The notes: generated by a model not told the origin, from the letters alone. Positions 5,263 through 59,706 are shown, numbered from the stretch's first letter. The stretch: DNA of 64,000 nucleotides from an uncultured Planctomycetia bacterium (GCA_964572255.1 CAZNEE010000001.1:203587-267586), one strand, 5' to 3'. Program-made: numbers and translations.

Positions 5263-6126
5263 ATGAATAAAGGAAAAATCCTTATAGCGGACGATGAGTT
5301 AAATCTTGTTGATATCTTGGAAAAGATGTTAATGAGAGAAGGTTATGAAGTCTTTAAATCTTCGAACGGCGAGGAAGTGCTTGAAATAGTAGATGATCTC
5401 ATGCCGGATCTTATCCTTCTGGATATTAACATGCCTGTCAAGAACGGTTTCGAGGTAAAAACAAAACTTAATGAAAAAACATCCACAGCAAGCATCCCGG
5501 TAATATTCCTCACCGGCAGGGGCGATCTGTCCGATAGAGTGGAAGGCCTTAATTTAGGGGTTGATGATTATATAACTAAACCTTTCCAATTGGAAGAACT
5601 GCGCGCAAGAGTTCTTTCTGTTCTGAAGCGCAGGAAGTTTTATGAAGAGATATCCATGACCGACGGGCTTACCGGATTACGCAACGTGAATTTTTTCAAT
5701 GAACAGATCGGCATATTTTTCAGTTTAGCCAAAAGATATAACCGCCTGTTCTCGCTTGCCGTGATCGATGTAAATGATTTCAAGAAGATCAACGATACGC
5801 ACGGGCATTCAGGGGGAGACTTCGCTTTAAGGAAATTATCGGAAGTCATGAAAGAGACGTTCAGAAAATCTGATATCATTACCAGATACGGCGGCGATGA
5901 ATTTATTGTGATCCTTCCTGAGGTAGATCAAAATCAAGCAGAAAGAGCGCTGAAAAGGGTAAAGGATAAGGTGAACGGCAAAGAGTTCCTGATGGAAGAC
6001 ACCGAAAAAAGAATATCCTTTTCAATAAGCGCAGGCACGGCCTCCTTTAATGAAAAATTCGAGAACGAAACACAGCTTTTCGACGAAGCCGATGCCAACA
6101 TGTATAAGGATAAAGAGAATAAATAA
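5263..6126 (+). CDS. Response-regulator receiver + GGDEF diguanylate cyclase (PleD/WspR-like)
   Basis: N-terminal REC domain (ILIADDE ... LILLDINMP ... ITKPF). C-terminal domain carries an intact RYGGDEF motif. Confidence 0.8.
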   Translation: MNKGKILIADDELNLVDILEKMLMREGYEVFKSSNGEEVLEIVDDLMPDLILLDINMPVKNGFEVKTKLNEKTSTASIPVIFLTGRGDLSDRVEGLNLGVDDYITKPFQLEELRARVLSVLKRRKFYEEISMTDGLTGLRNVNFFNEQIGIFFSLAKRYNRLFSLAVIDVNDFKKINDTHGHSGGDFALRKLSEVMKETFRKSDIITRYGGDEFIVILPEVDQNQAERALKRVKDKVNGKEFLMEDTEKRISFSISAGTASFNEKFENETQLFDEADANMYKDKENK

Positions 6127-6194: not shown

Positions 6195-6275
6195 TTAAGA
6201 GTACAGTATGCTTCCTACCAGGGCCCCTCCGCCCGGTGTGGATCCTCCCTGTACGGAACCATACTGCACTCTTAG
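6195..6275 (+). other. GC-rich imperfect long hairpin (candidate structured RNA / terminator-like element)
   Basis: 14-bp outer stem AAGAGTACAGTATG (6197-6210) pairs with CATACTGCACTCTT (6260-6273) with one A.C mismatch. The enclosed core is GC-rich (CCAGGGCCCCTCCGCCCGGTGTGGATCCTCCCTG) in an otherwise AT-rich spacer. There is no U-tail. Confidence 0.3.
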
Positions 6276-6342: not shown

Positions 6343-7335
6343 ATGATGATGTACGCCGGGACATTAATACTGTCCAGAAAAACAATAGAACATATAATTG
6401 ATATAAGTGAAGCGGTCAAGGCCGTGGAGAGCGCTTTCAGGGAATATGGACTGGGCAGGGTGCAGATGCCGGCAAAGATATATCTCCACCTTGATAAATA
6501 TGAGGGCGATTTCAGGGCGATGCCGGCATATATAGAAAAATTGGACAAGTGTGTCCTTAAATGGGTAAATGTCCATCCAAAGAATAAGAAATTCGGATTG
6601 CCCGCAGTAATGGCTGTTATTATTTTAAGCGATCCAAAGACCGCACTGCCTTTATGCATCATGGACGGGACTTACGCGACAAATCTGCGCACCGGGGCGG
6701 CTGGGGGCGTGGCCGCTAAATATCTGGCAAGGAAAAATTCAAAAATAGTCGGATTAGTGGGATGCGGAGCCCAGGCGAAGACCCAGCTCCAGGCCTTAAG
6801 AGGACTCTTCAAAATAAAAGAAGTAAAAGTATGGGGCCATAAGGCGTCTTATGTTGAAGAGTTCTTAAAAGACATGAAAAAGACAAATCTGAAACTGACT
6901 GTCGCCAGGGATGTAAAAGAATGTGTTAAGAATTGCGATATAATCGTTACTACAACACCTTCCAGAAAACCGATCGTGAAAGCAAAATGGCTTAAAAAGG
7001 GCGTTCATATAAATGCGATCGGAGCCGATGCTAAAGGCAAACAGGAGCTTGAACCCGCTGTTTTAAAGAAGGCTAAAGTCGTTGTGGATGCATGGGAACA
7101 AGCCTCTCATAGCGGGGAGATAAACGTACCGGTGAGAAAAAAACTCATAACAAGGAAAGATATTCATGCTGATATCGGCCAGATCATTGCGGGAAAGAAA
7201 AAAGGGAGGACAGGCGAGGACGAGATAACGGTTTTTGATTCGACCGGCCTGGCCATACAGGATGTGGCTGTGGCCGATCTTATTTACAGGACAGCTGCTA
7301 AAAAGAAAATAGGCAAGAAAATCAAAATAATCTAA
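6343..7335 (+). CDS. Ornithine cyclodeaminase / mu-crystallin family enzyme (possibly archaeal-type alanine dehydrogenase)
   Basis: OCD/mu-crystallin-like sequence with Rossmann segment [15 protein letters not shown]. It has an unusual Lys-rich C-terminal tail [11 protein letters not shown]. Confidence 0.7.
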
Positions 7336-8905: not shown

Positions 8906-10252
8906 GTGGAAAATAGAACAGATATTTTGATAATTGGGGCAGGGCCAGCAGGCATGGTTAGCGCCGTGACAGCACGGAAATATTATCCTGATAAAAAGAT
9001 TACAGTCTTGAAAAGCATAGAGAACGGTGTGATACCGTGTGGCATACCCTATATGTTTTCAAGTTTACAGGACCCCGATGACAATAAATTGGGCACGGCG
9101 CCTTTGGAAAAGCTCGGCATTGAGATCATATTTGACGAAGCGGTCGCAATAGACAGGACCCTTAAGATGGTCGAAGGGCGGTCAGGGGATAAATATTCTT
9201 ACGAAAAGATAGTTCTGGCGCTGGGGTCTAATCCGATTGTGCCCGGGATACCGGGTATAGAGAAGAAAGGGATTTTCTCCGCTTATAAGGATATGGAATA
9301 CCTTAAGCCCTCTATAGAGGAAATAAAGAATGGGAAAGATATTCTAATACTCGGCGGCGGTTTTATAGGCGTGGAGTTCGCCGATGAAATCTCTAAAATC
9401 CCGGGGATTAAAGTCCACTTGGTTGAATTGCTACCGCATCTTTTAGCGCATTCTTTTGACAAGGAATTTTCCGATTTAGTTGAAGAAAGATTAAGATCAA
9501 AAGGCGTTGATATTCTGCTGAATAAGCGCGTTATGGAATTTCTGGGAAAAGAAAGAGTTGAGGCGGTCCGTTTTGAAAACGGTGACAAGCTTAAGGCTGA
9601 CAGCGTTGTCTTGGGGATAGGCACTGTGCCGAGCACGGACCTAGCCAGGGATGCTGGATTGGATCTCGGTAAGGGGAAAGGCATATGGGTGGATGAGTAC
9701 ATGCGGACGGTCGATTCCGACATTTTCGCGGTGGGCGACTGCGCCGGTAAAAGGGATTTTTATACCCGTAAGGACGCGCCTGTCATGCTTGCCTCAACCG
9801 CGACCGCCGAGGCCAGAATAGCGGGGGCGAATCTCTATCAGCTTAAGGTGATAAGGGAGAATAAAGGCACGATTGCCATATATTCAACTTATGTAGACGG
9901 TCTGGCCCTGGGGTCGGCCGGTCTTACCGAAAACAGCGCGAAAAGAGAAGGTTTTGAGATAATAACGGGAAGCACCGAGGGCGTCGACAAGCATCCCAAA
10001 AATCTGCCCGGTGTAAATAAGGTAAAGGTTAAATTGATCTTTTCCAAGCAGTCGGGGATACTTATGGGCGGCCAGGCGGCCGGCGGTATTTCGGCCGGAG
10101 AGACCATAAACGTTATAGGTCTTGCTATCCAGCAGAGGATATCAGTTACCGAACTTGAGACGCTGCAGATGGCCACGCATCCTTATTTAACAAGCGCGCC
10201 CACCATGTATCCGATAGTCTTGGCGGCGCAGGACGCGTCCGGAAAGATGTAA
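8906..10252 (+). CDS. FAD-dependent pyridine-nucleotide-disulfide oxidoreductase (NADH oxidase / CoA-disulfide reductase family)
   Basis: GAGPAG FAD motif. Single redox Cys in the IPCGIPYMF context typical of Nox/Npx/CoADR. Second Rossmann GGGFIGVEFA. Confidence 0.8.
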   Translation: MENRTDILIIGAGPAGMVSAVTARKYYPDKKITVLKSIENGVIPCGIPYMFSSLQDPDDNKLGTAPLEKLGIEIIFDEAVAIDRTLKMVEGRSGDKYSYEKIVLALGSNPIVPGIPGIEKKGIFSAYKDMEYLKPSIEEIKNGKDILILGGGFIGVEFADEISKIPGIKVHLVELLPHLLAHSFDKEFSDLVEERLRSKGVDILLNKRVMEFLGKERVEAVRFENGDKLKADSVVLGIGTVPSTDLARDAGLDLGKGKGIWVDEYMRTVDSDIFAVGDCAGKRDFYTRKDAPVMLASTATAEARIAGANLYQLKVIRENKGTIAIYSTYVDGLALGSAGLTENSAKREGFEIITGSTEGVDKHPKNLPGVNKVKVKLIFSKQSGILMGGQAAGGISAGETINVIGLAIQQRISVTELETLQMATHPYLTSAPTMYPIVLAAQDASGKM

Positions 10253-10267
10253 CTAGGAGGTAATAAC

Positions 10268-10360
10268 TTGCAGAGAAAAGTCTTCATCAGGACTTTCGGA
10301 TGTCAGATGGAAGCGTTATTGCATGTCGGTTTTACATTTCTTGGAGGGAATGTACAGTGA
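10268..10360 (+). other. miaB 5'-end-like mini-ORF A (LQRKVFIRTFGCQMEALLHVGFTFLGGNVQ*), orphan miaB start fragment or leader peptide
   Basis: TTG start lies 8 nt after a perfect AGGAGG (10255-10260) and 15 nt after the stop of the upstream gene. The peptide matches MiaB N-terminus MSKKVYLRTFGCQMN through CQM, then diverges. Confidence 0.6.
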
Positions 10361-10409
10361 TAGTTAAATGTTTAAGGGATAAAGAGTTATATAAAATAAT
10401 AATTGGGAT

Positions 10410-10421
10410 CCGTACGTAAGT
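10410..10421 (+). repeat. Conserved 12-mer CCGTACGTAAGT upstream of cassette gene (copy 1 of 3)
   Basis: The identical 12-mer recurs at 14600-14611, and the 11-mer CCGTACGTAGT recurs at 13011-13021. Each copy lies 7-45 nt before a cassette gene start codon. Confidence 0.6.
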
Positions 10422-10466
10422 GGAATTTATCAGATTTCATTCGAGCCTTTAACTGCACGTACTATT

Positions 10467-10856
10467 TTGGGAAAAGATATGAAAAGAGTTTTCGTAACTG
10501 CGATAAATTGCATTGATGGGCGGGTTCAGAAGCCTTTAACGGAATTTGCAATAAGCAAATTCGGGGTTGATTATGTCGATATGATAACCGAGCCCGGTCC
10601 GGATAAGATCTTGAGTGAGAAAAAAGACCTGAATATTATTGAATCAGTAAAAAGACGCACGTTAATTTCTGTTGAAAAACATAAATCAAAGGTCGTTATT
10701 ATTGCGGGGCATCATGATTGCGCCGCAAATCCGGTTGAAGAAAACGAGCATTATAGACAAATCAAGGAAGCCGTAAAAAATGTAAAAGAATGGAATTTAG
10801 GAGCTGATATTTACGGCATATGGGTTGATGAGAACTGGAAAGTTGTTTTACTATAA
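10467..10856 (+). CDS. Small beta-carbonic-anhydrase-like protein (Cab-type CxDxR and GHxDC motifs)
   Basis: 129 aa. Motifs CIDGRV and IAGHHDCAA match the beta-CA zinc-ligand/Asp-Arg dyad pattern. It is shorter than canonical beta-CAs, so function is uncertain. Confidence 0.55.
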   Translation: MGKDMKRVFVTAINCIDGRVQKPLTEFAISKFGVDYVDMITEPGPDKILSEKKDLNIIESVKRRTLISVEKHKSKVVIIAGHHDCAANPVEENEHYRQIKEAVKNVKEWNLGADIYGIWVDENWKVVLL

Positions 10857-10879
10857 AAATTTCTTAGAAAGGAAATAAG

Positions 10880-10915
10880 TTGCATAAAAAAGTTTACATA
10901 CGCACGTTCGGCTGA
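10880..10915 (+). other. miaB 5'-end-like mini-ORF B (LHKKVYIRTFG*)
   Basis: TTG start after AAAGGAAA, 23 nt after the stop of the previous gene. TGA stop falls at the position of the MiaB Cys codon. It is followed by the conserved TGACCGYTGGT block shared with copy C. Confidence 0.55.
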
Positions 10916-10979
10916 CCGTTGGTTACAGTGGCGCGAGATGATTATAGAATCGGTTAAAACTATAAGATGAGTGTAAGAT

Positions 10980-12827
10980 ATGTCGGAAAAAGAACTTAAA
11001 AGAGAACTGGGGTTTTGGGATATATTTTGTCTGGCCTCCGGGGCGATGATCAGTTCGGGTATATTTATACTGCCGGGACTGGCATATGGTCAGGCAGGGC
11101 CGCTGGTGTTCATATCATATTTTCTTGCCGGGGTACTGGCTTTAATGGGAACATTGAGCATTATCGAACTTTCTACAGCCATGCCCAAGGCTGGAGGCGA
11201 TTATTTCTTTATTACCAGGAGCCTGGGGCCGCTTGTAGGAACCGTATCCTCTTTTCTCAGCTGGACCGCTCTTTGCCTGAAATCAGCGTTTGCTGTGTTC
11301 GGTATAGCCGAGATTTTGTATATCACTTTCGGTTTTCCGGTACTCGTATCATCATTTTTTATCTGTTGTTTTTTTATGGCACTTAATATTCTGGGGGTAA
11401 AAGAGGCGGCAAAGTTAGAAATTATACTTGTTGCCGGATTGTTTGCCATAATGCTTTTTCTGGTAGTGGGCGGATTGGGAAGTCTTTCCGAATCCAATTT
11501 CACGCCTTTGCTCCCGAATGGTATAAACAAGGTGCTTGTTACCGCGGGATTTGTTTTTATATCCTTTGGAGGGCTTCTTAACATTGCCAGTATATCAGGA
11601 GAGGTCAAAGATCCTTCCAAAAATATTCCCAAAGGTATGATATTTTCGGTTCTTGCGGTTACAGCCATGTATTCAGCCGTACTTATAGTGGTGGTAGGTC
11701 TTTTGCCCGGGGATAAACTAGTAGGGTCTCTTACTCCGGTGGCGGACGCGGGAAGAATACTTTTTGGAAAAGCAGGTTATGCCGTAGTCTCAATAGGAGC
11801 GCTCCTGGCGTTTGTTACCACGGCTAATGCCGGGATAATGTCTGCATCCAGGTATCCTCTTGCTCTTAGTGACGACCGGCTTTTGCCGCCGGCTATAAGC
11901 ATCCTTACAAAAAAGAAAAGATCTCCCGTTGTAGCTATATCACTAACCGGGCTTTTCATCTTTATATGTTTGACTCTTGACCTCGCTACGCTTGTCAAGC
12001 TCGGATCAGTAGTTATCCTGACCCTGTATATATTGACCAATGCAGCCGTTATAATACTCAGGGAAGGAAGGGTTCAGAATTACAGGCCGTCTTTCAAAAT
12101 GCCTTTTTACCCCTGGATCAATATTGCCGGAATACTTCTTTTTGTTTTTCTTATCATGGATATGGGTTTTGTAGCTGTTGAGATGAGTATTGCGCTCTTG
12201 ATAACGGCAGTCTTGACGTATTTTCTGTATGGGAGGAAAAGGCACAATATAGAATATGCTTTGCTTCATTTAATAGAAAGAGTTATCAGTAAAAAAATAA
12301 CAGATAACACCCTTGAGGAAGAATTAAAAAGCGTTATTATTCATAGAGATGAAATGATAATAGATAGATTTCATGAGCTTGTTGAAAGTGCTACTGTTTT
12401 AGATATTAAGAAAAAAACAAAAATTGACATATTTCTTAATATGTTGGCGGAAAAGGTTTCAAATGAAATTGGTCTTGCGGATAAAGAAGTTATTGAGCTT
12501 TTCAAACAAAGAGAAGAGGAGGGATCTACTGCTATTACACCATTCGTAGCTATACCACACATAATAATCCCCGGCAAAAATAGATTCAAGTTGGTTGTAG
12601 TAAGATGTATCGAAGGGGTAGAATTTACCAGTGAAAATAATAGTGTAAAAGCTGTTTTTGTTTTATTTGGCACTAAGGACGAAAGGGCATTCCATCTGAA
12701 AGTTTTATCTTCCATAGCGCATATTGTGCAAAACCCAAAATTTGAAAAGACATGGATTAATGCCAAGGATGAAAATCAAATAAAGGATATTATTTTATTA
12801 AGCGAACGTAAAAGATTTAAAATGTAG
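10980..12827 (+). CDS. APC-family amino-acid permease fused to a C-terminal PTS EIIA(Ntr/Fru, type 2) domain
   Basis: About 12 TM helices in the N-terminal 430 aa. The C-terminal 150 aa carry the EIIA-2 signature REEEGSTAITPFVAIPH and VKAVFVLFGTKDERAFHLKVLSSIAHIV. Confidence 0.8.
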   Translation: MSEKELKRELGFWDIFCLASGAMISSGIFILPGLAYGQAGPLVFISYFLAGVLALMGTLSIIELSTAMPKAGGDYFFITRSLGPLVGTVSSFLSWTALCLKSAFAVFGIAEILYITFGFPVLVSSFFICCFFMALNILGVKEAAKLEIILVAGLFAIMLFLVVGGLGSLSESNFTPLLPNGINKVLVTAGFVFISFGGLLNIASISGEVKDPSKNIPKGMIFSVLAVTAMYSAVLIVVVGLLPGDKLVGSLTPVADAGRILFGKAGYAVVSIGALLAFVTTANAGIMSASRYPLALSDDRLLPPAISILTKKKRSPVVAISLTGLFIFICLTLDLATLVKLGSVVILTLYILTNAAVIILREGRVQNYRPSFKMPFYPWINIAGILLFVFLIMDMGFVAVEMSIALLITAVLTYFLYGRKRHNIEYALLHLIERVISKKITDNTLEEELKSVIIHRDEMIIDRFHELVESATVLDIKKKTKIDIFLNMLAEKVSNEIGLADKEVIELFKQREEEGSTAITPFVAIPHIIIPGKNRFKLVVVRCIEGVEFTSENNSVKAVFVLFGTKDERAFHLKVLSSIAHIVQNPKFEKTWINAKDENQIKDIILLSERKRFKM

Positions 12828-12868
12828 TGACGCAAAAATTCATACAACTATATAAGAGGTAATATTTT

Positions 12869-12904
12869 ATGTTAAAGAAAGTTTTCATCAGGACTTTTGG
12901 CTGA
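12869..12904 (+). other. miaB 5'-end-like mini-ORF C (MLKKVFIRTFG*)
   Basis: ATG with AAGAGGT RBS 8 nt upstream, 41 nt after the APC permease stop. TGA falls at the Cys position. It is followed by TGACCGCTGGT. Confidence 0.55.
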
Positions 12905-13033
12905 CCGCTGGTGTAAGGTATGCAGACTGATTTTGCAGACTTTAAGGGACATATATTCTTGCACTTAAGTGTTTGTGAAATATAGACATAATAAGTTAAT
13001 TAACTTAATGCCGTACGTAGTAAAAAATAGAAA

Positions 13034-14206
13034 ATGAAAAATTCTAGCAAATTTTTAATCAGCATCGCCGTGTTTTTAGGATTTTATTATCTGCCAATAG
13101 AATTATTGCCATTTCGAAATCCTATATTTGAAGCATTAGCATTAGCGAAATGGTATGCGAGAGAGCATGTGCTATTATGTTTAGTGCCGGCTTTCTTTAT
13201 AGCAGGGGCGATATCAGTTTTTATAAGTCAAGCAGCTATTATTAAGTATTTTGGCGCAAAAGCCAAGAAAATATTAGCTTATACCGTAGCTTCTGTATCA
13301 GGTAGTATTTTGGCTGTTTGTTCCTGCACAGTATTGCCACTATTTTCTGGAATTTACAAAAGAGGGGCTGGTTTAGGGCCTGCTATAGCATTCCTTTATT
13401 CAGGACCGGCTATTAACGTATTGGCTATTATTTTTACTGCTAGAGTTTTAGGATGGCAGCTTGGTTTTGCAAGAGCGGCAGGGGCTGTTATTTTTAGTAT
13501 TGTTATAGGATTTTTGATGCATCTGATATTCTTGAAAGAAGAACGGGAAAGGCATGCTCAAGGAAATTTCGCAGTGCCAGAGGAAGAGCCAAGCAGACCT
13601 TTATGGAAGAATGCTATATATTTTTCTTCTACGATAGGTATTCTTATTTTTGCCAATTGGGCAAAACCTGGCGCATCAGATTCAGGATTATGGGTAAAAA
13701 TATATCAATTCAAATGGTTTATTACAGCTATTTTTGGAATAGTATTAGCATTGGTATTGATAAGCTGGTTTAAAAAAGATGAACTAAAGAAATGGATAAC
13801 ATCAAGCTGGGAGTTTGCGCTTCAAATATTGCCCTTATTGCTTTTAGGTGTATTGGTAGCTGGATTGCTTCTTGGCAGAGTAGGTCATGAGGGGATAATT
13901 CCTTCAAGATTTGTTGAAAAATTAGTAGGCGGTAATTCATTATTCGCTAATTTCTTTGCTTCAATATTTGGAGCATTTATGTATTTTGCCACGCTTACAG
14001 AAGTACCGATCTTGAAAGGATTGATAGGCGCTGGAATGGGAAAAGGCCCTGCTTTAGCGCTTCTTTTAGCAGGCCCGGCGTTGAGTTTGCCTAATATGCT
14101 TGTTATACGAAGCGTAATAGGCATAAAAAAGACAGTTGTTTACGTAGCGCTTGTAGTTATAATGGCCGCTATAAGCGGGATCATATTCGGCATTTTAGTA
14201 AAATAA
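13034..14206 (+). CDS. COG0701/DUF318-type permease (two-repeat membrane permease with CSC motif)
   Basis: 390 aa polytopic protein. Motifs VASVSGSILAVCSCTVLPLF and LYSGPAINVLAI are typical of the YraQ/ArsP-like permease family. Confidence 0.7.
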   Translation: MKNSSKFLISIAVFLGFYYLPIELLPFRNPIFEALALAKWYAREHVLLCLVPAFFIAGAISVFISQAAIIKYFGAKAKKILAYTVASVSGSILAVCSCTVLPLFSGIYKRGAGLGPAIAFLYSGPAINVLAIIFTARVLGWQLGFARAAGAVIFSIVIGFLMHLIFLKEERERHAQGNFAVPEEEPSRPLWKNAIYFSSTIGILIFANWAKPGASDSGLWVKIYQFKWFITAIFGIVLALVLISWFKKDELKKWITSSWEFALQILPLLLLGVLVAGLLLGRVGHEGIIPSRFVEKLVGGNSLFANFFASIFGAFMYFATLTEVPILKGLIGAGMGKGPALALLLAGPALSLPNMLVIRSVIGIKKTVVYVALVVIMAAISGIIFGILVK

Positions 14207-14216
14207 GGGGAAGGTT

Positions 14217-14453
14217 ATGAAAATACAAGTTTATGGAAAAGGTTGCCCGAAATGCCACGATTTAACTCACAATGTCCAAGAAGCACTTAAAGAGATCGGT
14301 AAAGAAGATAAAGTTGAGCATGTGGCTGATATTAACAAGATAACCGAAAAAGGAATTATGCTTACGCCGGCGCTTGTTATCGATGATGAGATAGTAAGTG
14401 AAGGAAGGATTCTTTCGGTGGATGATATTAAAAAAGCTATAATGGATAAGTAA
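14217..14453 (+). CDS. Thioredoxin-fold redox-active disulfide protein 2 (CxxC)
   Basis: 78 aa with a CPKC motif near the N-terminus (MKIQVYGKGCPKCHDL). This is the small thioredoxin-like protein frequently paired with COG0701 permeases. Confidence 0.7.
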   Translation: MKIQVYGKGCPKCHDLTHNVQEALKEIGKEDKVEHVADINKITEKGIMLTPALVIDDEIVSEGRILSVDDIKKAIMDK

Positions 14454-14457
14454 AGTC

Positions 14458-14547
14458 ATGACAAAGAGAATATACATAAAAACTTTTGGTTGTCAGATGG
14501 AAGCGTTATTACATGTCAGTTTTACATTTCTTGGAGGAAGTTTATAG
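14458..14547 (+). other. miaB 5'-end-like mini-ORF D (MTKRIYIKTFGCQMEALLHVSFTFLGGSL*)
   Basis: ATG lies 4 nt after the thioredoxin-like stop. After CAGATGG the DNA is about 90% identical to copy A (10304-10350). The 5' part is divergent but protein-conserved. Confidence 0.6.
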
Positions 14548-14617
14548 TAGCAGCTAATTGCTTTTGGCTTAAAGAGTTAAGTTAACCTGAGACAGGGAAC
14601 CGTACGTAAGTATTGTT

Positions 14618-15394
14618 ATGAAATACACAAAACGACAGATTAATGATCTGAAAAAGGTAATGGGTGTTGAAAAAGAGATGATTCCGCTGCTTTCTCTTTT
14701 TAAGCCGAAAAACAGAATACTCAATCCGTGGGTAAAAAAGTTTCCCGGTATTTTTAAGAAGCTGGGGCTTAAAAAAGGAATGAGGGTGATAGATATCCCC
14801 TGCGGCCAGGGAGGAGTTTCGGTGCCTCTGGCAAAAAAGTACAAAGTGAACGTAACAGGATATGATATTTTACCGGCGTATGTCCGTTACGCGCGGGGAT
14901 ATGCAGAGGAAAAAAGAGTTTCCGATTTGTGCAGATTCGAGGTTGGGGATATCAGAGACGCGGTTAAAAGGAAAGATATATGCGATGTTCTTTTGTGGGT
15001 GGCGCCTCCTCACGTATGGGGCGGGGCAAAGCCCACCATAGGTAAGTTGAGAAATGCGGTTAAAGATGGAGGCATAATAGTTATTGCCGACGCATATCTA
15101 TATCCCGGTGTCAGACGAAAAGGAATGTATAAGAACTACGAGAATCTTAAAAATACCACTCAAGGATATTCCTCATTCGGCGATAAAATTGTAAAAGTGT
15201 ATGATTATAAAAGTTCTTTGTGGGATTTTGATTATTCAAGAACCAGAAGAGAAATCGTTAAAGGGATAAAAAGAGCAAAAACCGAAAAGGATCGAAAAAT
15301 CGTCAAAAAATATATTGCGTCAATGGATGATATTCAAAATAAAGAGACAAAAGATCTGGGCCTGGCGGTTTGGATAATAAAAATGGTTAAATGA
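14618..15394 (+). CDS. Class I SAM-dependent methyltransferase
   Basis: Motif I VIDIPCGQGGVSVPLAKKY. ATG is preceded by the 12-mer CCGTACGTAAGT at 14600-14611 instead of an SD sequence. Confidence 0.6.
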   Translation: MKYTKRQINDLKKVMGVEKEMIPLLSLFKPKNRILNPWVKKFPGIFKKLGLKKGMRVIDIPCGQGGVSVPLAKKYKVNVTGYDILPAYVRYARGYAEEKRVSDLCRFEVGDIRDAVKRKDICDVLLWVAPPHVWGGAKPTIGKLRNAVKDGGIIVIADAYLYPGVRRKGMYKNYENLKNTTQGYSSFGDKIVKVYDYKSSLWDFDYSRTRREIVKGIKRAKTEKDRKIVKKYIASMDDIQNKETKDLGLAVWIIKMVK

Positions 15395-15404
15395 AAGAGA
15401 TTGT

Positions 15405-16733
15405 ATGAGTAAGAAAGTTTATCTCAGAACTTTTGGGTGTCAGATGAACGAACGTGATTCTGAGCTTATTTCAGGCATGCTGAAAGAAAAGGGGTACAAA
15501 ATATCCGATAACGCGGAAGAAGCGGATATCATCCTTTTTAATACATGCAGCGTCCGCCAACATGCCGAAGACAGGGTGATCGGTAATATCCAAAAACTCT
15601 CTTCCCGGAAGAAAAAAGACCCGAATTTAAGGATAGGCGTCTTAGGCTGCATGGCTAAGCGTCATGGGGAAATGCTTTTCAAGGAATATCCGCAGGTTGA
15701 TATTGTCGTGGGGCCAAGCAATATTTATGACATTCCGGATCTCTTGGACAGGGTGTATGATTCTGAAGAGATTCTAGCTGTAGACAGGGAAAAGCGCCCT
15801 AAAAAGAAAGCATTAGCCGGATATCGTTCGGGAATATTTTCGGCATATGTTAACATCATGTACGGGTGTGATAATTTTTGTTCATATTGTATCGTGCCTT
15901 ACGTGAGAGGGCGCGAAACATCACGTCCTAAAAAAGACATCATCGATGAAGTCAAAGCTTTGGCCGATAATGGTTTTAAAGAAGTAACGCTTCTCGGGCA
16001 GAATGTGAATTCTTATGGCAAAGGCCTTTCGAGCAAAATATCTTTTCCGGAACTTCTGGAAGCCGTTAATCGTGTGAAAGGCATAGAACGCATTCGTTTT
16101 ACAACAAGCCATCCCAAAGATGCCGGAAAAAGCCTTTTTCGGGCGGTATCTGACCTGGACAAGGTATGCGAACACATCCATCTTCCGCTTCAATCAGGGT
16201 CCGACAAGATACTGGATCTCATGAACAGAAAATATACATATGAGGACTATAGAAAAAAGATAGAACTCTTGAGAAGCATGAATTCCGATGTAGGACTGAG
16301 TACTGATATTATAGTCGGGTTTCCTTCCGAGAAAGAAAATGATTATAAAGCTACATTTAAAGCGATGGACCAGATCGGTTTTAATTCCGCTTTTATCTTT
16401 AAATATTCGCCTCGTCCTCCCGCGCTCTCTTCATGTTTAGTGGATGATGTGAGTGAAAAAGATAAAAGAAGCCGAAATAACGAACTGCTCGAACTTCAAA
16501 AAAAGATATCACACCAAAAGAACAAAGGGATGGTCGGTACACAGCAGGAAATTTTGGTCGAGGGAAGGAGCCGCATGTCAAAAAAGGAACTTATCGGCAG
16601 GACCCGTAATTTTACGCCTTGCGTTTTTCCCGGTGGCGATAACCTTATTGGCCAGCTTGTTAAAGTGGACATAAAAGGAACAAGTCAAACCACGTTAAAA
16701 GGAGTATTAATAAGTGGAAAAGAAAATGATTGA
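15405..16733 (+). CDS. miaB: tRNA-i6A37 methylthiotransferase MiaB (radical SAM MTTase)
   Basis: N-terminal MTTase domain VYLRTFGCQMNERDSE. Radical SAM CxxxCxxC is CDNFCSYC. C-terminal TRAM domain. Start is 10 nt after the methyltransferase stop. Confidence 0.9.
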   Translation: MSKKVYLRTFGCQMNERDSELISGMLKEKGYKISDNAEEADIILFNTCSVRQHAEDRVIGNIQKLSSRKKKDPNLRIGVLGCMAKRHGEMLFKEYPQVDIVVGPSNIYDIPDLLDRVYDSEEILAVDREKRPKKKALAGYRSGIFSAYVNIMYGCDNFCSYCIVPYVRGRETSRPKKDIIDEVKALADNGFKEVTLLGQNVNSYGKGLSSKISFPELLEAVNRVKGIERIRFTTSHPKDAGKSLFRAVSDLDKVCEHIHLPLQSGSDKILDLMNRKYTYEDYRKKIELLRSMNSDVGLSTDIIVGFPSEKENDYKATFKAMDQIGFNSAFIFKYSPRPPALSSCLVDDVSEKDKRSRNNELLELQKKISHQKNKGMVGTQQEILVEGRSRMSKKELIGRTRNFTPCVFPGGDNLIGQLVKVDIKGTSQTTLKGVLISGKEND

Positions 16734-57604: not shown

Positions 57605-58300
57605 ATGGAAAATTTAAGAGAAGCATGGAAAGATATTTGGAATGGAAAAGCCCAATCGGAAAACATGTTTGTCCAAATCGGAAGGAGCTCTTATTCTCCG
57701 CTAGATTTTTTATTAATGGTAAAAGATATATGTAAATCATTGGATTTTAATAAGGAAGATATAGTGTTGGATGCAGGTGGAGGCGCAGGGTGGGTATCTA
57801 TAAGCGTAGCTCCTTTTGTTAATAAAGTTGTCTTATTTGATTTTTCCGAAAAAATGATTGATGCGGCAAAGGAAAATACAAAGTTCTATGAAAATGTAGA
57901 ACTTTACCACGATGATTTATTAGTTATGAATAATGTAAAAGATAAGAAATATGCGAAAGTCATAATAAGTTCAGTTATACAATATTTGGAAGATTACGCC
58001 CAAATAGAAACAGCACTCACTAATATTTATAACGTTTTAACAGAGGGAGGGAAAGCTGTATTTACCCATAATCCAGATATGCGAAAAAGACAAGCCCACA
58101 TTGATTCGTACTCTCGACTCGATTGGCCTAAGGAAAAAATTAATGCAGCACTTGCGAAGGAAGAGGAGAGATTGTGGCTTGAAATAGATGAGCTAAGAAA
58201 AACTTGCTCTAAAATAGGATTTTCTGAGTTTTACGAAGTTCCTATTAATCCCAAACTTTGGCAATCAACCCATATGTTAGATTTTGTTGTTAAAAAATGA
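57605..58300 (+). CDS. SAM-dependent methyltransferase
   Basis: VLDAGGGAGWVSISVA motif I. ATGA-type overlap with pseG. Confidence 0.6.
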   Translation: MENLREAWKDIWNGKAQSENMFVQIGRSSYSPLDFLLMVKDICKSLDFNKEDIVLDAGGGAGWVSISVAPFVNKVVLFDFSEKMIDAAKENTKFYENVELYHDDLLVMNNVKDKKYAKVIISSVIQYLEDYAQIETALTNIYNVLTEGGKAVFTHNPDMRKRQAHIDSYSRLDWPKEKINAALAKEEERLWLEIDELRKTCSKIGFSEFYEVPINPKLWQSTHMLDFVVKK

Positions 58301-59016
58301 AGGTATTAATAAGTCAGCCAAGATATTTACCAGCCATTAATTATCTGCAAAGATTATATTTTGCGGATCTATTTGTTTTTTTAAACAATGTCCAAAGACA
58401 AGCACGTGGATGGGAAAATAGAAATAAGATTTTAATTGATGGCAATGAAAAATGGATAACCATACCTGTATCTTCATCTTCTAGGGTGCTTATTAAGGAC
58501 ACGAAAATTTCCGGAAAAGATTGGATAGATGTACATAAGAATATAATCAATAATGCATATCGAAAGCATCCTTATTATGATAAAAAAATCGTTGATCTGT
58601 ATTACGCTGATGTGAAGGAAGCGCTGGAAAAGAATGATTATAGTTTTACCGATTGCCTTGTAAAGTTGACAATAAATGCATGTAAGATATTTGATTTTCA
58701 GCCAAATCTTGCATGGTCAAGTTTTTACGATCGGACAGATGAAATTAAAGGTCCAAAAAAACTACTGGAAATTTGCCGTGCAACAGGAGCCACTACTTAT
58801 ATTTCTGGTGCTAATGGTAGAAAATACGGGATAGTTGATGCTTTTAAGGGCGGAGAGATTGAGGTTAAGTTTCATGATTATGAGTATCCCTTATACGATC
58901 AATTTGGGGGTAAAAATTATGTTCCATGGCTATCTTTTTTTGATCCAATATTTAATGTAGGGTTGGAAACGGTAAAAAAGTGGATTTATAAACAACCGCG
59001 ATTAACAGAAGAATAA
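58297..59016 (+). CDS. WbqC-like family protein
   Basis: MKVLISQPRYLPAINYLQRL is the WbqC-family N-terminus. ATGA overlap. Confidence 0.7.
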   Translation: MKVLISQPRYLPAINYLQRLYFADLFVFLNNVQRQARGWENRNKILIDGNEKWITIPVSSSSRVLIKDTKISGKDWIDVHKNIINNAYRKHPYYDKKIVDLYYADVKEALEKNDYSFTDCLVKLTINACKIFDFQPNLAWSSFYDRTDEIKGPKKLLEICRATGATTYISGANGRKYGIVDAFKGGEIEVKFHDYEYPLYDQFGGKNYVPWLSFFDPIFNVGLETVKKWIYKQPRLTEE

Positions 59017-59028
59017 AGAGGTGAGAAA

Positions 59029-59706
59029 ATGAGTAAAATTCTTATAGTAGCTGCGCATCCTGATGATGAGGTTTTAGGGTGTGGAGGAACAATTGCAAGA
59101 TTGATTAAAGAAGGACACGAAGCTTATACGTTAATTTTAGGGGAAGGAATAACCTCGAGGGATGAAAAGAGAGATGTCAAGAGACGAAAAAAGGAGATAG
59201 ATAACTTGAAAGACCAAGTTTATAAAGCCAATAAAATCATGGGCGTAAAAGATGTTTTTATTAATAATTTTCCAGACAATAGATTTGACGACACCCCTTT
59301 ACTTGATATAGTAAAAGTTATAGAAAAAAAGAAAAAAGAAATAAAACCGGAAATCATTTTCACACATCATTCCAATGATTTAAATATAGATCACCAAATT
59401 ACATTCGAAGCTGTCATTACCGCTGCTAGGCCTCTCAAGGGTGAATCGGTCAAAACAATTTACTCTTTTGAAGTAATGTCATCTACGGAGTGGAATTATC
59501 CTTTAACTTTTTCACCAAATGTGTTCTTTGATATATCAAGCACAATAGATAAAAAGTTAGAAGCTGTCGAAGAATATAAATCTGAAAAGAGGCCTTTCCC
59601 ACATCCTAGATCACTTAAAGGTATAAAATCTAATGCTTCAAATTGGGGTGTGAAAATGGGCGTAAAACATGCTGAGGCGTTTGAATGCATCAGATGTATA
59701 AGATAA
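59029..59706 (+). CDS. PIG-L/LmbE-family N-acetylsugar deacetylase
   Basis: ILIVAAHPDDEVLGCGGTIARL zinc-binding motif. Confidence 0.8.
   Translation: MSKILIVAAHPDDEVLGCGGTIARLIKEGHEAYTLILGEGITSRDEKRDVKRRKKEIDNLKDQVYKANKIMGVKDVFINNFPDNRFDDTPLLDIVKVIEKKKKEIKPEIIFTHHSNDLNIDHQITFEAVITAARPLKGESVKTIYSFEVMSSTEWNYPLTFSPNVFFDISSTIDKKLEAVEEYKSEKRPFPHPRSLKGIKSNASNWGVKMGVKHAEAFECIRCIR

Follow-up and report, generated by a model that had tools for sequence, protein, structure and literature searches.

The stretch of DNA analysed here, which we call the window, comprises 64,000 nucleotides (nt) deposited as an uncultured Planctomycetia bacterium (GCA_964572255.1 CAZNEE010000001.1:203587-267586). It contains an intact miaB gene that is preceded by four short gene cassettes, and a copy of the start of miaB stands in front of each cassette. 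Among MiaB proteins with a named source, the closest bear the label Candidatus Omnitrophota, and the host of this miaB array is an Omnitrophota bacterium. A sequence-only reading of the window had proposed that the array arose by serial insertion at the 5' end of miaB, each incoming element supplying a replacement start while a recombinase encoded elsewhere acted in trans. We examined this proposal against related loci, and it is supported by variation between strains, by an empty site and by the homology of the starts. The five copies of the miaB start, the last of which belongs to the intact gene, are as follows.

10268-10309, + strand: copy 1, start codon TTG, LQRKVFIRTFGCQM; the copy furthest from miaB
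10880-10914, + strand: copy 2, start codon TTG, LHKKVYIRTFG followed by a stop codon
12869-12903, + strand: copy 3, start codon ATG, MLKKVFIRTFG followed by a stop codon; the left end point of a segment absent from a strain with two cassettes
14458-14499, + strand: copy 4, start codon ATG, MTKRIYIKTFGCQM
15405-16733, + strand: intact miaB (TIGR01574, 480 bits, 9.6e-144), whose first ~35 nt are copy 5

All five copies encode the peptide core K-K-V-Y/F-I-R-T-F-G, and the earlier count of five was borne out by both repeat and six-frame searches. The repeat search yielded one five-member family of 47 nt (10263, 10875, 12864, 14453 and 15400) whose members are 66-74% identical to the reference copy, while a six-frame search of the 64 kb for [ILVM][KRE]T[FYW]G gave exactly five matches, all on the + strand. 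A degenerate DNA pattern, RTNTWYMTNMRNACNTTYGGNTG, fits five of the five copies where 0.01 matches are expected (100 shuffles), so that the number of start copies is far above chance. Each copy had been placed 4-41 nt past the preceding stop codon, and the gaps for copies 1 to 5 are indeed 15, 23, 41, 4 and 10 nt. The claim that each copy has its own ribosome-binding site and start codon held for the start codons (TTG in copies 1 and 2) but not for every ribosome-binding site, since copy 4, only 4 nt past a stop codon, has no clear one. Across the copies the amino acids are kept while synonymous sites vary. Short direct repeats of this kind can confuse assemblers, and one might therefore suspect an assembly artefact, or else a local duplication of the miaB 5' end by homologous recombination. 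The four-cassette form was, however, recovered by independent assemblies (Logan, ENA and JGI) with 100% identity over 7.6 kb, and copies that are 66-74% identical are too diverged for mis-assembly or recent duplication; we find an origin of either kind barely conceivable.

The cassettes that lie between the start copies, each with a left arm and its cargo, and the left neighbour of the array are listed below in order.

8906-10252, + strand: flavin adenine dinucleotide (FAD)-dependent pyridine nucleotide-disulfide oxidoreductase, left neighbour of the array (Pfam Pyr_redox_2, 4.5e-61)
10303-10421, + strand: left arm of cassette 1, with promoter-like TTTACA-16-TACAGT at 10331-10358 and the box CCGTACGTAAGT at 10410-10421
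10479-10856, + strand: cargo of cassette 1, a Pro_CA_2 protein of 125 amino acids (aa) with its ATG at 10479 (Pfam PF20393, 1.1e-48)
10915-10979, + strand: short left arm of cassette 2 (CTGACCGTTGGTTACAGTGGCGCGAGATGAT...), with promoter-like GTTACA-17-TAGAAT at 10922-10950
10980-12827, + strand: cargo of cassette 2, an APC amino-acid permease fused to PTS EIIA-2, 615 aa (Pfam AA_permease_2 and PTS_EIIA_2)
12904-13020, + strand: left arm of cassette 3, diverged, with TTTGCA-16-TATTCT and the box CCGTACGTAGT at 13010-13020 (from the module alignment)
13034-14453, + strand: cargo of cassette 3, an ArsP_1 permease (13034-14206) and a thioredoxin-like protein of the MTH895/ArsE family (Thioredoxin_3; 14217-14453)
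14493-14611, + strand: left arm of cassette 4, with promoter-like TTTACA-16-TATAGT at 14521-14548 and the box CCGTACGTAAGT at 14600-14611
14618-15394, + strand: cargo of cassette 4, an S-adenosylmethionine-dependent methyltransferase of 258 aa (Pfam Methyltransf_31, 1.9e-13)

The functions that the sequence-only reading had assigned to the four cargoes agree with their Pfam and NCBIfam matches. Downstream, miaB is followed by a CysQ-like gene, miaA, hflX, hrcA, grpE and dnaJ, with an unscanned open reading frame (ORF) of 644 aa at the dnaK position between grpE and dnaJ. Co-orientation of genes across the window is extreme: every Pfam-matching ORF of at least 110 aa in the 64 kb is on the + strand, and the ORFs of the - strand are all nested in + strand genes.

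Related assemblies show that the number and content of the cassettes vary, as the sequence-only reading had anticipated. Contigs from four other assemblies (L082-L085), 99.6-99.7% identical to the window on both sides of the array, retain cassettes 1 and 2 and lack cassettes 3 and 4, so that miaB directly follows the permease cassette; the FAD-dependent oxidoreductase holds the equal place in L082. Both end points of the missing segment lie inside miaB-start copies, the right one at ~15438. Copies 1 and 2 are identical between the two-cassette and four-cassette strains. A second difference was found between L115 and L088, which belong to a related species whose MiaB is 78% identical to that of the window: their sequences are 100% identical over 4 kb, through ATG...ACTTTCGGATG, beyond which L115 enters a different element and L088 enters miaB. 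This divergence, which is bounded by the ATG and ...TTCGGATG, reads as a clean site-specific breakpoint and as a miaB-proximal insertion. Both strain differences are thus located at the miaB-proximal end of the array, which fits insertion only at the copy that has genuine miaB sequence behind it. The empty site expected in relatives was found in L086, where miaB directly follows a gene for a response regulator rather than the oxidoreductase. Single cassettes lie between a start copy and miaB in L171 (53% G+C) and L156. Among the 80 GTDB-representative miaB loci listed, which are at most 48% identical and do not include close relatives, none has a second start copy; the sequence TFGCQMNE is universal in MiaB. 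Compared with the two-cassette strain, the window also shows clusters of single-nucleotide polymorphisms at 6918-6945 and 11620-11633 (five in 14 nt, inside the permease gene), which suggests that short tracts were imported by recombination.

Other species carry other sets of cassettes. The L088 array comprises several methyltransferases, a GIY-YIG ORF, a Methyltransf_21 protein and a permease, and that of L092 a permease, a methyltransferase and a unit of ~116 nt that is devoid of cargo and occurs twice (6786-6900 and 8919-9035), with two differences between its copies, inserted each time at TTCGG| and with a different cassette downstream. The ~116-nt unit of L092 forms hairpins, the stem consisting of the start copy plus TTGACC base-paired to an inverted copy, and it recalls either integron attC sites or miniature inverted-repeat transposable elements; in the hairpin units of L088 as well as L092 the stems pair the start copy and bases past the junction with an inverted copy. 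Small GIY-YIG ORFs of 81-93 aa recur as array cargo in L088 (6399-6800), L172 (8585-8857) and, reverse-complemented, L115 (794-1075). Those of L088 and L172 match the Pfam GIY-YIG family, and the unscanned ORF of L115 resembles that of L088. In L088 two long perfect hairpins come after the GIY-YIG ORF, and the start copy lies within the second; in L172 the GIY-YIG ORF stands beside a bAvd/23S_rRNA_IVP ORF. The L088 array also holds, at 6250-6275, a fragment of the miaB body (CAGATGAACGAGCGAGAT) without the KKVYIRTFG codons before it, which points to an aberrant or secondary rearrangement.

The units hold more than a gene and a start. In the sequence-only reading the part shared between cassettes was the miaB start; this is correct as far as the start is concerned but not as the limit of the likeness, since left-arm sequence continues past the start copies. 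Beyond the TTYGG of the start copy, cassettes 1 and 4 have a further 105 nt in common (80%), followed by GGGAWCCGTACGTAAGT. Alignment of 14 junctions from 14 loci revealed one family of modules of ~125 nt, common to cassettes with unrelated cargo. The full left arm opens with miaB-like ...GGNTGNCNGNTG and carries the box AGGGAACCGTACGTAAGT as well as promoter-like TTTACA-16-TATAnT. In the permease cassette the arm is shortened, and the short arm of cassette 2 also precedes the permease cassette in L088 and L092. The order of elements in the module is ACNTTYGG-NTGNCNGNTG, two direct repeats, TTAYTACA-NNN and ATTTTACA-NNN, with variable triplets that are often equal, then GGGACATATATA, a TTAAGTG-like element and finally the box. 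The distance from the final TTYGG of the start copy to the box is 106-110 nt (97 nt in L126) in 11 of the 14 junctions. The modules of L136 and L171, otherwise distant loci, share an extra stem-loop insert of ~70 nt at the same position just after ATTTTA. The 12-nt core of the box is confined to these arrays. A metagenome scan for AGGGAACCGTACGTAAG returned 74 matches, 12 of them with a miaB-start copy just upstream on the same strand and the other 62 unrelated, many of these in human-gut assemblies; a search for the box motif on viral contigs gave no match.

A promoter scan placed promoter-like hexamers at homologous positions of the arms of cassettes 1, 2 and 4, and TTTACA, a 16-nt spacer and TATAnT resemble a sigma-70 promoter, whose function we infer from the sequence. 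RNAalifold found no consensus fold, either for the start-plus-module alignment on both strands or for the part from promoter to box, and a scan of the whole window against Rfam at gathering thresholds gave no match. Because of these two results we read the module as a promoter or binding region that acts at the level of DNA, probably half a recombination site together with a promoter and leader, rather than as a structured RNA. They bear equally on the idea that the array is a fixed regulatory device, in which a conserved operon would be regulated by short leader peptides mimicking the MiaB N-terminus together with an RNA element downstream of them. That copies keep their amino acids while varying synonymously, and that a module stands in the 5' leader of each cargo gene at a fixed spacing, would suit such a device. 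What would mark a leader-peptide attenuator or riboswitch is nevertheless missing, there being neither fold nor Rfam match, and the cargo functions are mutually unrelated. Moreover, a viral contig carries this start-plus-module unit behind a recombinase gene (see below). Rather than one array conserved in the same order, cassette number and content differ among near-identical strains and among species (L082-L085 without cassettes 3 and 4, other sets in L088 and L092, one element more in L115 than in L088), which already contradicts a fixed device, and we consider this explanation very improbable.

A candidate for the enzyme comes from related loci. L136 encodes a protein of 559 aa with Resolvase (PF00239), Recombinase (PF07508) and Zn_ribbon_recom (PF13408) domains and the active-site motif VALYTRVSTEDQ, its gene being preceded by those for a DnaG-type primase and small helix-turn-helix (HTH) proteins. 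The 3' end of this recombinase gene overlaps, in another frame, an ORF that reads MVENAGN...GKRILLRTFG and then stops, and the whole module and a cargo gene come next. On L174, a viral contig from IMG/VR, a recombinase 79% identical to that of L136 is followed by ...PRVLLRTFGCKMAAMLHTDFT, and the ~125 nt after this mimic of the miaB start align to the whole cassette module, so that start and module together are alignable over ~170 nt. We read this recombinase-adjacent site as the putative attachment site of the element itself (attP). In L181 the mimic at the end of the recombinase gene is followed by the short arm. In L176-L180 the recombinase gene runs into a miaB that begins MVENERKDD...KKLRVLLRTFGCQMN, an arrangement that would correspond to the integrated, attR-like state. 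An N-terminal extension of MiaB like the product of the recombinase 3' end is clear in P0052, P0080 and P0089 and less close in P0023 and P0085. Upstream of miaB in L172 lies a decayed element, which has kept the extended start and an HTH remnant of excisionase type and has no recombinase gene. The start fragments had been supposed homologous to miaB 5' ends; they are, and they are homologous to the right ends of serine-recombinase mobile elements as well. The recombinase family has more than 700 homologues, of which those with a named source are almost all from Omnitrophota or Omnitrophica, and its relatives in the PDB include TP901-1 integrase and SPbeta YokA/SprA. Related loci show the traits of serine-recombinase elements, namely the domains with the catalytic serine and a site beside the recombinase gene or the target gene. 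The left edge of the L176 element (5860-5990) also bears a direct repeat of ~50 nt, GAAAATATTTCCGTCAGTTTTACAAAAAACGTCGTATGTAGCTAGTAG, and three CCGACACTTT repeats, which may be iterons or a replication origin.

Comparison of cargo with host genes suggests that cargo moves between lineages, being 72-85% identical where MiaB is only 45-51% identical. The methyltransferases of L088, L092, L112 and L156 are 78-85% identical; between L088 and L156 in particular the value is 85%, versus 51% for MiaB. The window ArsP is 72-74% identical to the ArsP encoded upstream of miaB in L126 and L176 (72% for L176), versus ~45% for the MiaB of both. Genes of arsenic/metal type recur upstream of miaB in L176 (148-5455), L126 and L129, as a group made up of DUF134, ArsP_1, methyltransferase, Thioredoxin_3, DsbD, SBF-family (Acr3-like) transporter and LMWPc, of which window cassette 3 is a subset. 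The permease cassette, whose orthologues in two other species are 77-80% identical versus 75-78% for MiaB, may be an old, vertically inherited unit.

This last observation would also suit a different history, in which full-size recombinase elements integrated repeatedly and lost their interiors, leaving a fossil array of scars in which nothing now moves. The decayed element of L172 is just such a remnant, and cassettes 3 and 4 have always been met together. Yet the stop codons of the window lie 4-41 nt from compact starts that lack the extension found at the recombinase 3' end, and random deletions would have needed an improbable tidiness to produce them. Nor does a fossil account well for the high similarity of cargo between lineages with distant MiaB, for the ~116-nt unit present twice in one array (L092) with two differences, or for differences of whole units between strains that are 99.7-100% identical. 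Taking both sides together, we think repeated integration and decay unlikely.

Our reading is that the region is probably an accretion array of small mobile cassettes that were recombined site-specifically into the first ~35-45 nt of miaB. Each cassette would consist of a left arm, one or two cargo genes co-oriented with miaB, and a right end with a ribosome-binding site, a start codon and a mimic of the MiaB N-terminus ~11 codons long. A recombinase would act on a site spanning the miaB start, for which the right end of the unit would be the new start and the left arm the other half-site. Recombination inside the start region would join the incoming mimic to the miaB body, so that MiaB stays intact and the old start is left without its gene, upstream of the new cassette. 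Since only the miaB-proximal copy precedes genuine miaB, new units would enter there and the oldest would be found furthest away. On this model copy 1, if arrays grow at the miaB side, is the oldest displaced start, whereas copy 5, presumably the attachment site that is active, would have arrived with cassette 4. We regard a large serine recombinase as the most likely catalyst, judging from the loci described above; it would be encoded by related phage-like or satellite elements in the same phylum and act in trans on the window cassettes. Movement in trans is suggested because recombinase elements and recombinase-less cassettes have both arms of the site in common, and pseudo-SCC elements of staphylococci (SCC, staphylococcal cassette chromosome) are thought to move in the same manner. 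We are less confident that single cassettes are mobile at present than we are of the model as a whole. Internal junctions, in which an element-type left half meets an element-type right half, would be reconstituted attP-like sites, and it is a speculative extension that the integrase deletes or exports blocks of cassettes through them. More broadly, we offer only tentatively the proposal that Omnitrophota possess an integron-like system of gene capture built on a large serine recombinase, in which promoter-carrying single-gene cassettes and even cargo-less ~116-nt units are excised and re-inserted in trans in the first codons of miaB, the gene being rebuilt in frame, and the integrase by itself could shuffle, delete or export blocks via the attP-like junctions.

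Several observations weigh against accretion of mobile cassettes by this enzyme. The window itself has no gene for a recombinase or transposase, as the sequence-only reading had noted, according to Pfam scans of nearly all ORFs of at least 110 aa (three at 57605-59706 are unscanned) and to tblastn with a serine recombinase. Over ~30 nt the miaB start of the two-cassette strain has six mismatches to copy 3 and 11 to copy 5, a pattern that rules out derivation of the four-cassette array from the two-cassette array by a single crossover; the arrays may instead have gained and lost units more than once, or one allele may have replaced another through homologous recombination. Look-ups of proteins identical to the cargo of cassettes 3 and 4 led to one array only, in which the two cassettes stand together, and nothing points to their separate movement. 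No circular cassette or excision junction was seen. In L176-L178, where recombinase elements abut miaB, the 10 kb upstream of these elements yielded no displaced start (attL). Attachment sites of large serine recombinases are ~40-50 bp long and imperfectly dyad-symmetric, centred on a non-palindromic dinucleotide that the sites share, and a dyad-symmetry scan gave no clear centre that would define such a dinucleotide (best score 7.9 of 22, against 5.5 for random sequence). Finally, the right ends of the cassettes are without the N-terminal extension typical of recombinase-bearing elements, so the cassettes are not simple deletion derivatives of those elements.

Some of these points raise the question whether another enzyme (a tyrosine recombinase, an integron-like integrase or a GIY-YIG nuclease) moves the cassettes, the serine-recombinase elements merely sharing their target. 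The lack of a recombinase gene in the window and of the dyad symmetry typical of serine-integrase sites would allow this, and so would the recurrence of GIY-YIG ORFs in the arrays of L088, L172 and probably L115 and the long, attC-recalling hairpins of some units, with the start copy and bases past the junction in their stems. On the other hand, the recombinase-adjacent site of L174 aligns with cassette junctions over both start and module. IntI or Phage_integrase was seen beside none of the arrays examined, Phage_integrase having no match in the window or beside the arrays of L082, L088 and L092. A repeat search found no inverted repeats at the ends of the window cassettes, hairpins being limited to some units of L088 and L092, and the GIY-YIG ORFs, at 81-90 aa, are missing from most arrays. 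We therefore judge another enzyme to be quite improbable.

The start region has also left marks on MiaB proteins and their annotation. About one third of the Omnitrophota MiaB entries (P0004, P0009, P0017 and ~30 others) begin MNERDSE, a start that drops an Fe-S-ligand cysteine from the MiaB models. Gene callers chose the Met of GCQM although an intact start lies upstream, as it does at position 9965 of L086; the short entries are thus an artefact of annotation, and the intact upstream start of L086 led us to reject selenocysteine or a truncated MiaB as its cause. In P0022 the MiaB ORF has two in-frame tandem start copies, MKSKVFLRTFGCQM and, after a further 28 aa, SVYIRTFGCQMNERDSE, probably a minimal unit that is read through as an N-terminal extension. 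One Omnitrophota clade (P0103-P0120; L171, 8249-10309) has MiaB fused at its C-terminus to TPR/SPOR, giving proteins of 660-750 aa.

Beyond the sequence-only account, the present work contributes a candidate recombinase and the conserved arm of the cassettes. The literature searched contained no description of a miaB-targeted array or of the target of this recombinase family, in keeping with the earlier statement that arrays aimed at the miaB start are not known to have been described. That account had likened the array to SXT/R391 elements at prfC or to integrons, a comparison that stands for the restoration of the 5' end and for the ordered arrays but not for the type of enzyme, a serine recombinase being likely here; SCC is closer. 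The closest analogues are the composite SCC islands at rlmH and the integrases that enter the 5' end of dusA. In SCC, the large serine recombinases CcrAB or CcrC insert elements at the end of rlmH (orfX), a conserved gene for an RNA methyltransferase, with the frame kept, tandem elements are bounded by direct repeats of the target end, pseudo-SCC elements without a recombinase rely on supply in trans, and the cargo includes arsenic/metal genes (see also bioRxiv 10.1101/336396 and 10.64898/2026.03.31.715619). The likeness lies in the five direct start copies that bound four recombinase-less units here. SCC uses the 3' end of rlmH in Staphylococcus, in contrast to the 5' end of miaB in Omnitrophota, and because the target here is a 5' end each unit has to bring its own ribosome-binding site, start codon and ~11 codons. 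The units also differ in size (~116 nt to 2 kb, versus 3-60 kb for SCC) and in sharing a conserved, ~125-nt left arm that has a promoter-like element; and catalysis is, for the present array, presumed rather than demonstrated. We accordingly describe the array as an analogue of SCC and not as a member of it.

Islands and prophages with dusA integrases enter the 5' end of a tRNA-modification gene, supply a new 5' end and displace the old one (Farrugia et al. 2015, PMC4482086). They and SXT/R391 at prfC, a translation gene, thus resemble the present array in inserting into a 5' coding end and in replacing the start that they displace. Their integrases, however, are tyrosine enzymes encoded on the elements themselves, which are large and as a rule occur singly; stacks of several single-gene cassettes without an integrase are not characteristic of them. 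With integrons the array shares ordered, co-oriented, mostly single-gene and recombinase-less cassettes, one entry site, strain-variable content and the existence of cargo-less units. It lacks the IntI, attI and Pc arrangement of integrons, each cassette appears to carry its own promoter, and the insertion site is inside a coding sequence that is rebuilt in frame; an integron in the strict sense was rejected, the window having no IntI and no attC-like palindromes. A last comparison concerns the accretion of cis-mobilizable elements and integrative and conjugative elements (ICESt1/ICESt3) at fda of Streptococcus thermophilus, where recombinase-less units flanked by att sites stand in tandem with an element that has a recombinase and can be mobilised by it. 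The accumulation of such units in tandem at one chromosomal site is common to both systems, but the fda system has a tyrosine integrase, a 3'-end target and units of a kilobase to tens of kilobases, and is without start-codon replacement or a conserved promoter arm.

If confirmed, the array would represent a second, mechanistically independent route to integron-style arrays. Its enzyme would be a serine recombinase, its attachment site would lie in protein-coding sequence, and its hosts would belong to a phylum that is known almost solely through metagenomes. It would flag a recurrent annotation problem, in that the N-termini of MiaB may be chimeric, extended or mis-started, and would point to a natural group of large serine recombinases whose target is conserved and well defined and whose cargo is naturally stacked, which is of practical interest for multiplex genome-integration tools. 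For the organisms themselves, it would explain how Omnitrophota with small genomes exchange accessory genes, such as those for arsenic or metal handling, methyltransferases and transporters, between lineages with just ~45-50% identity in their core genes.

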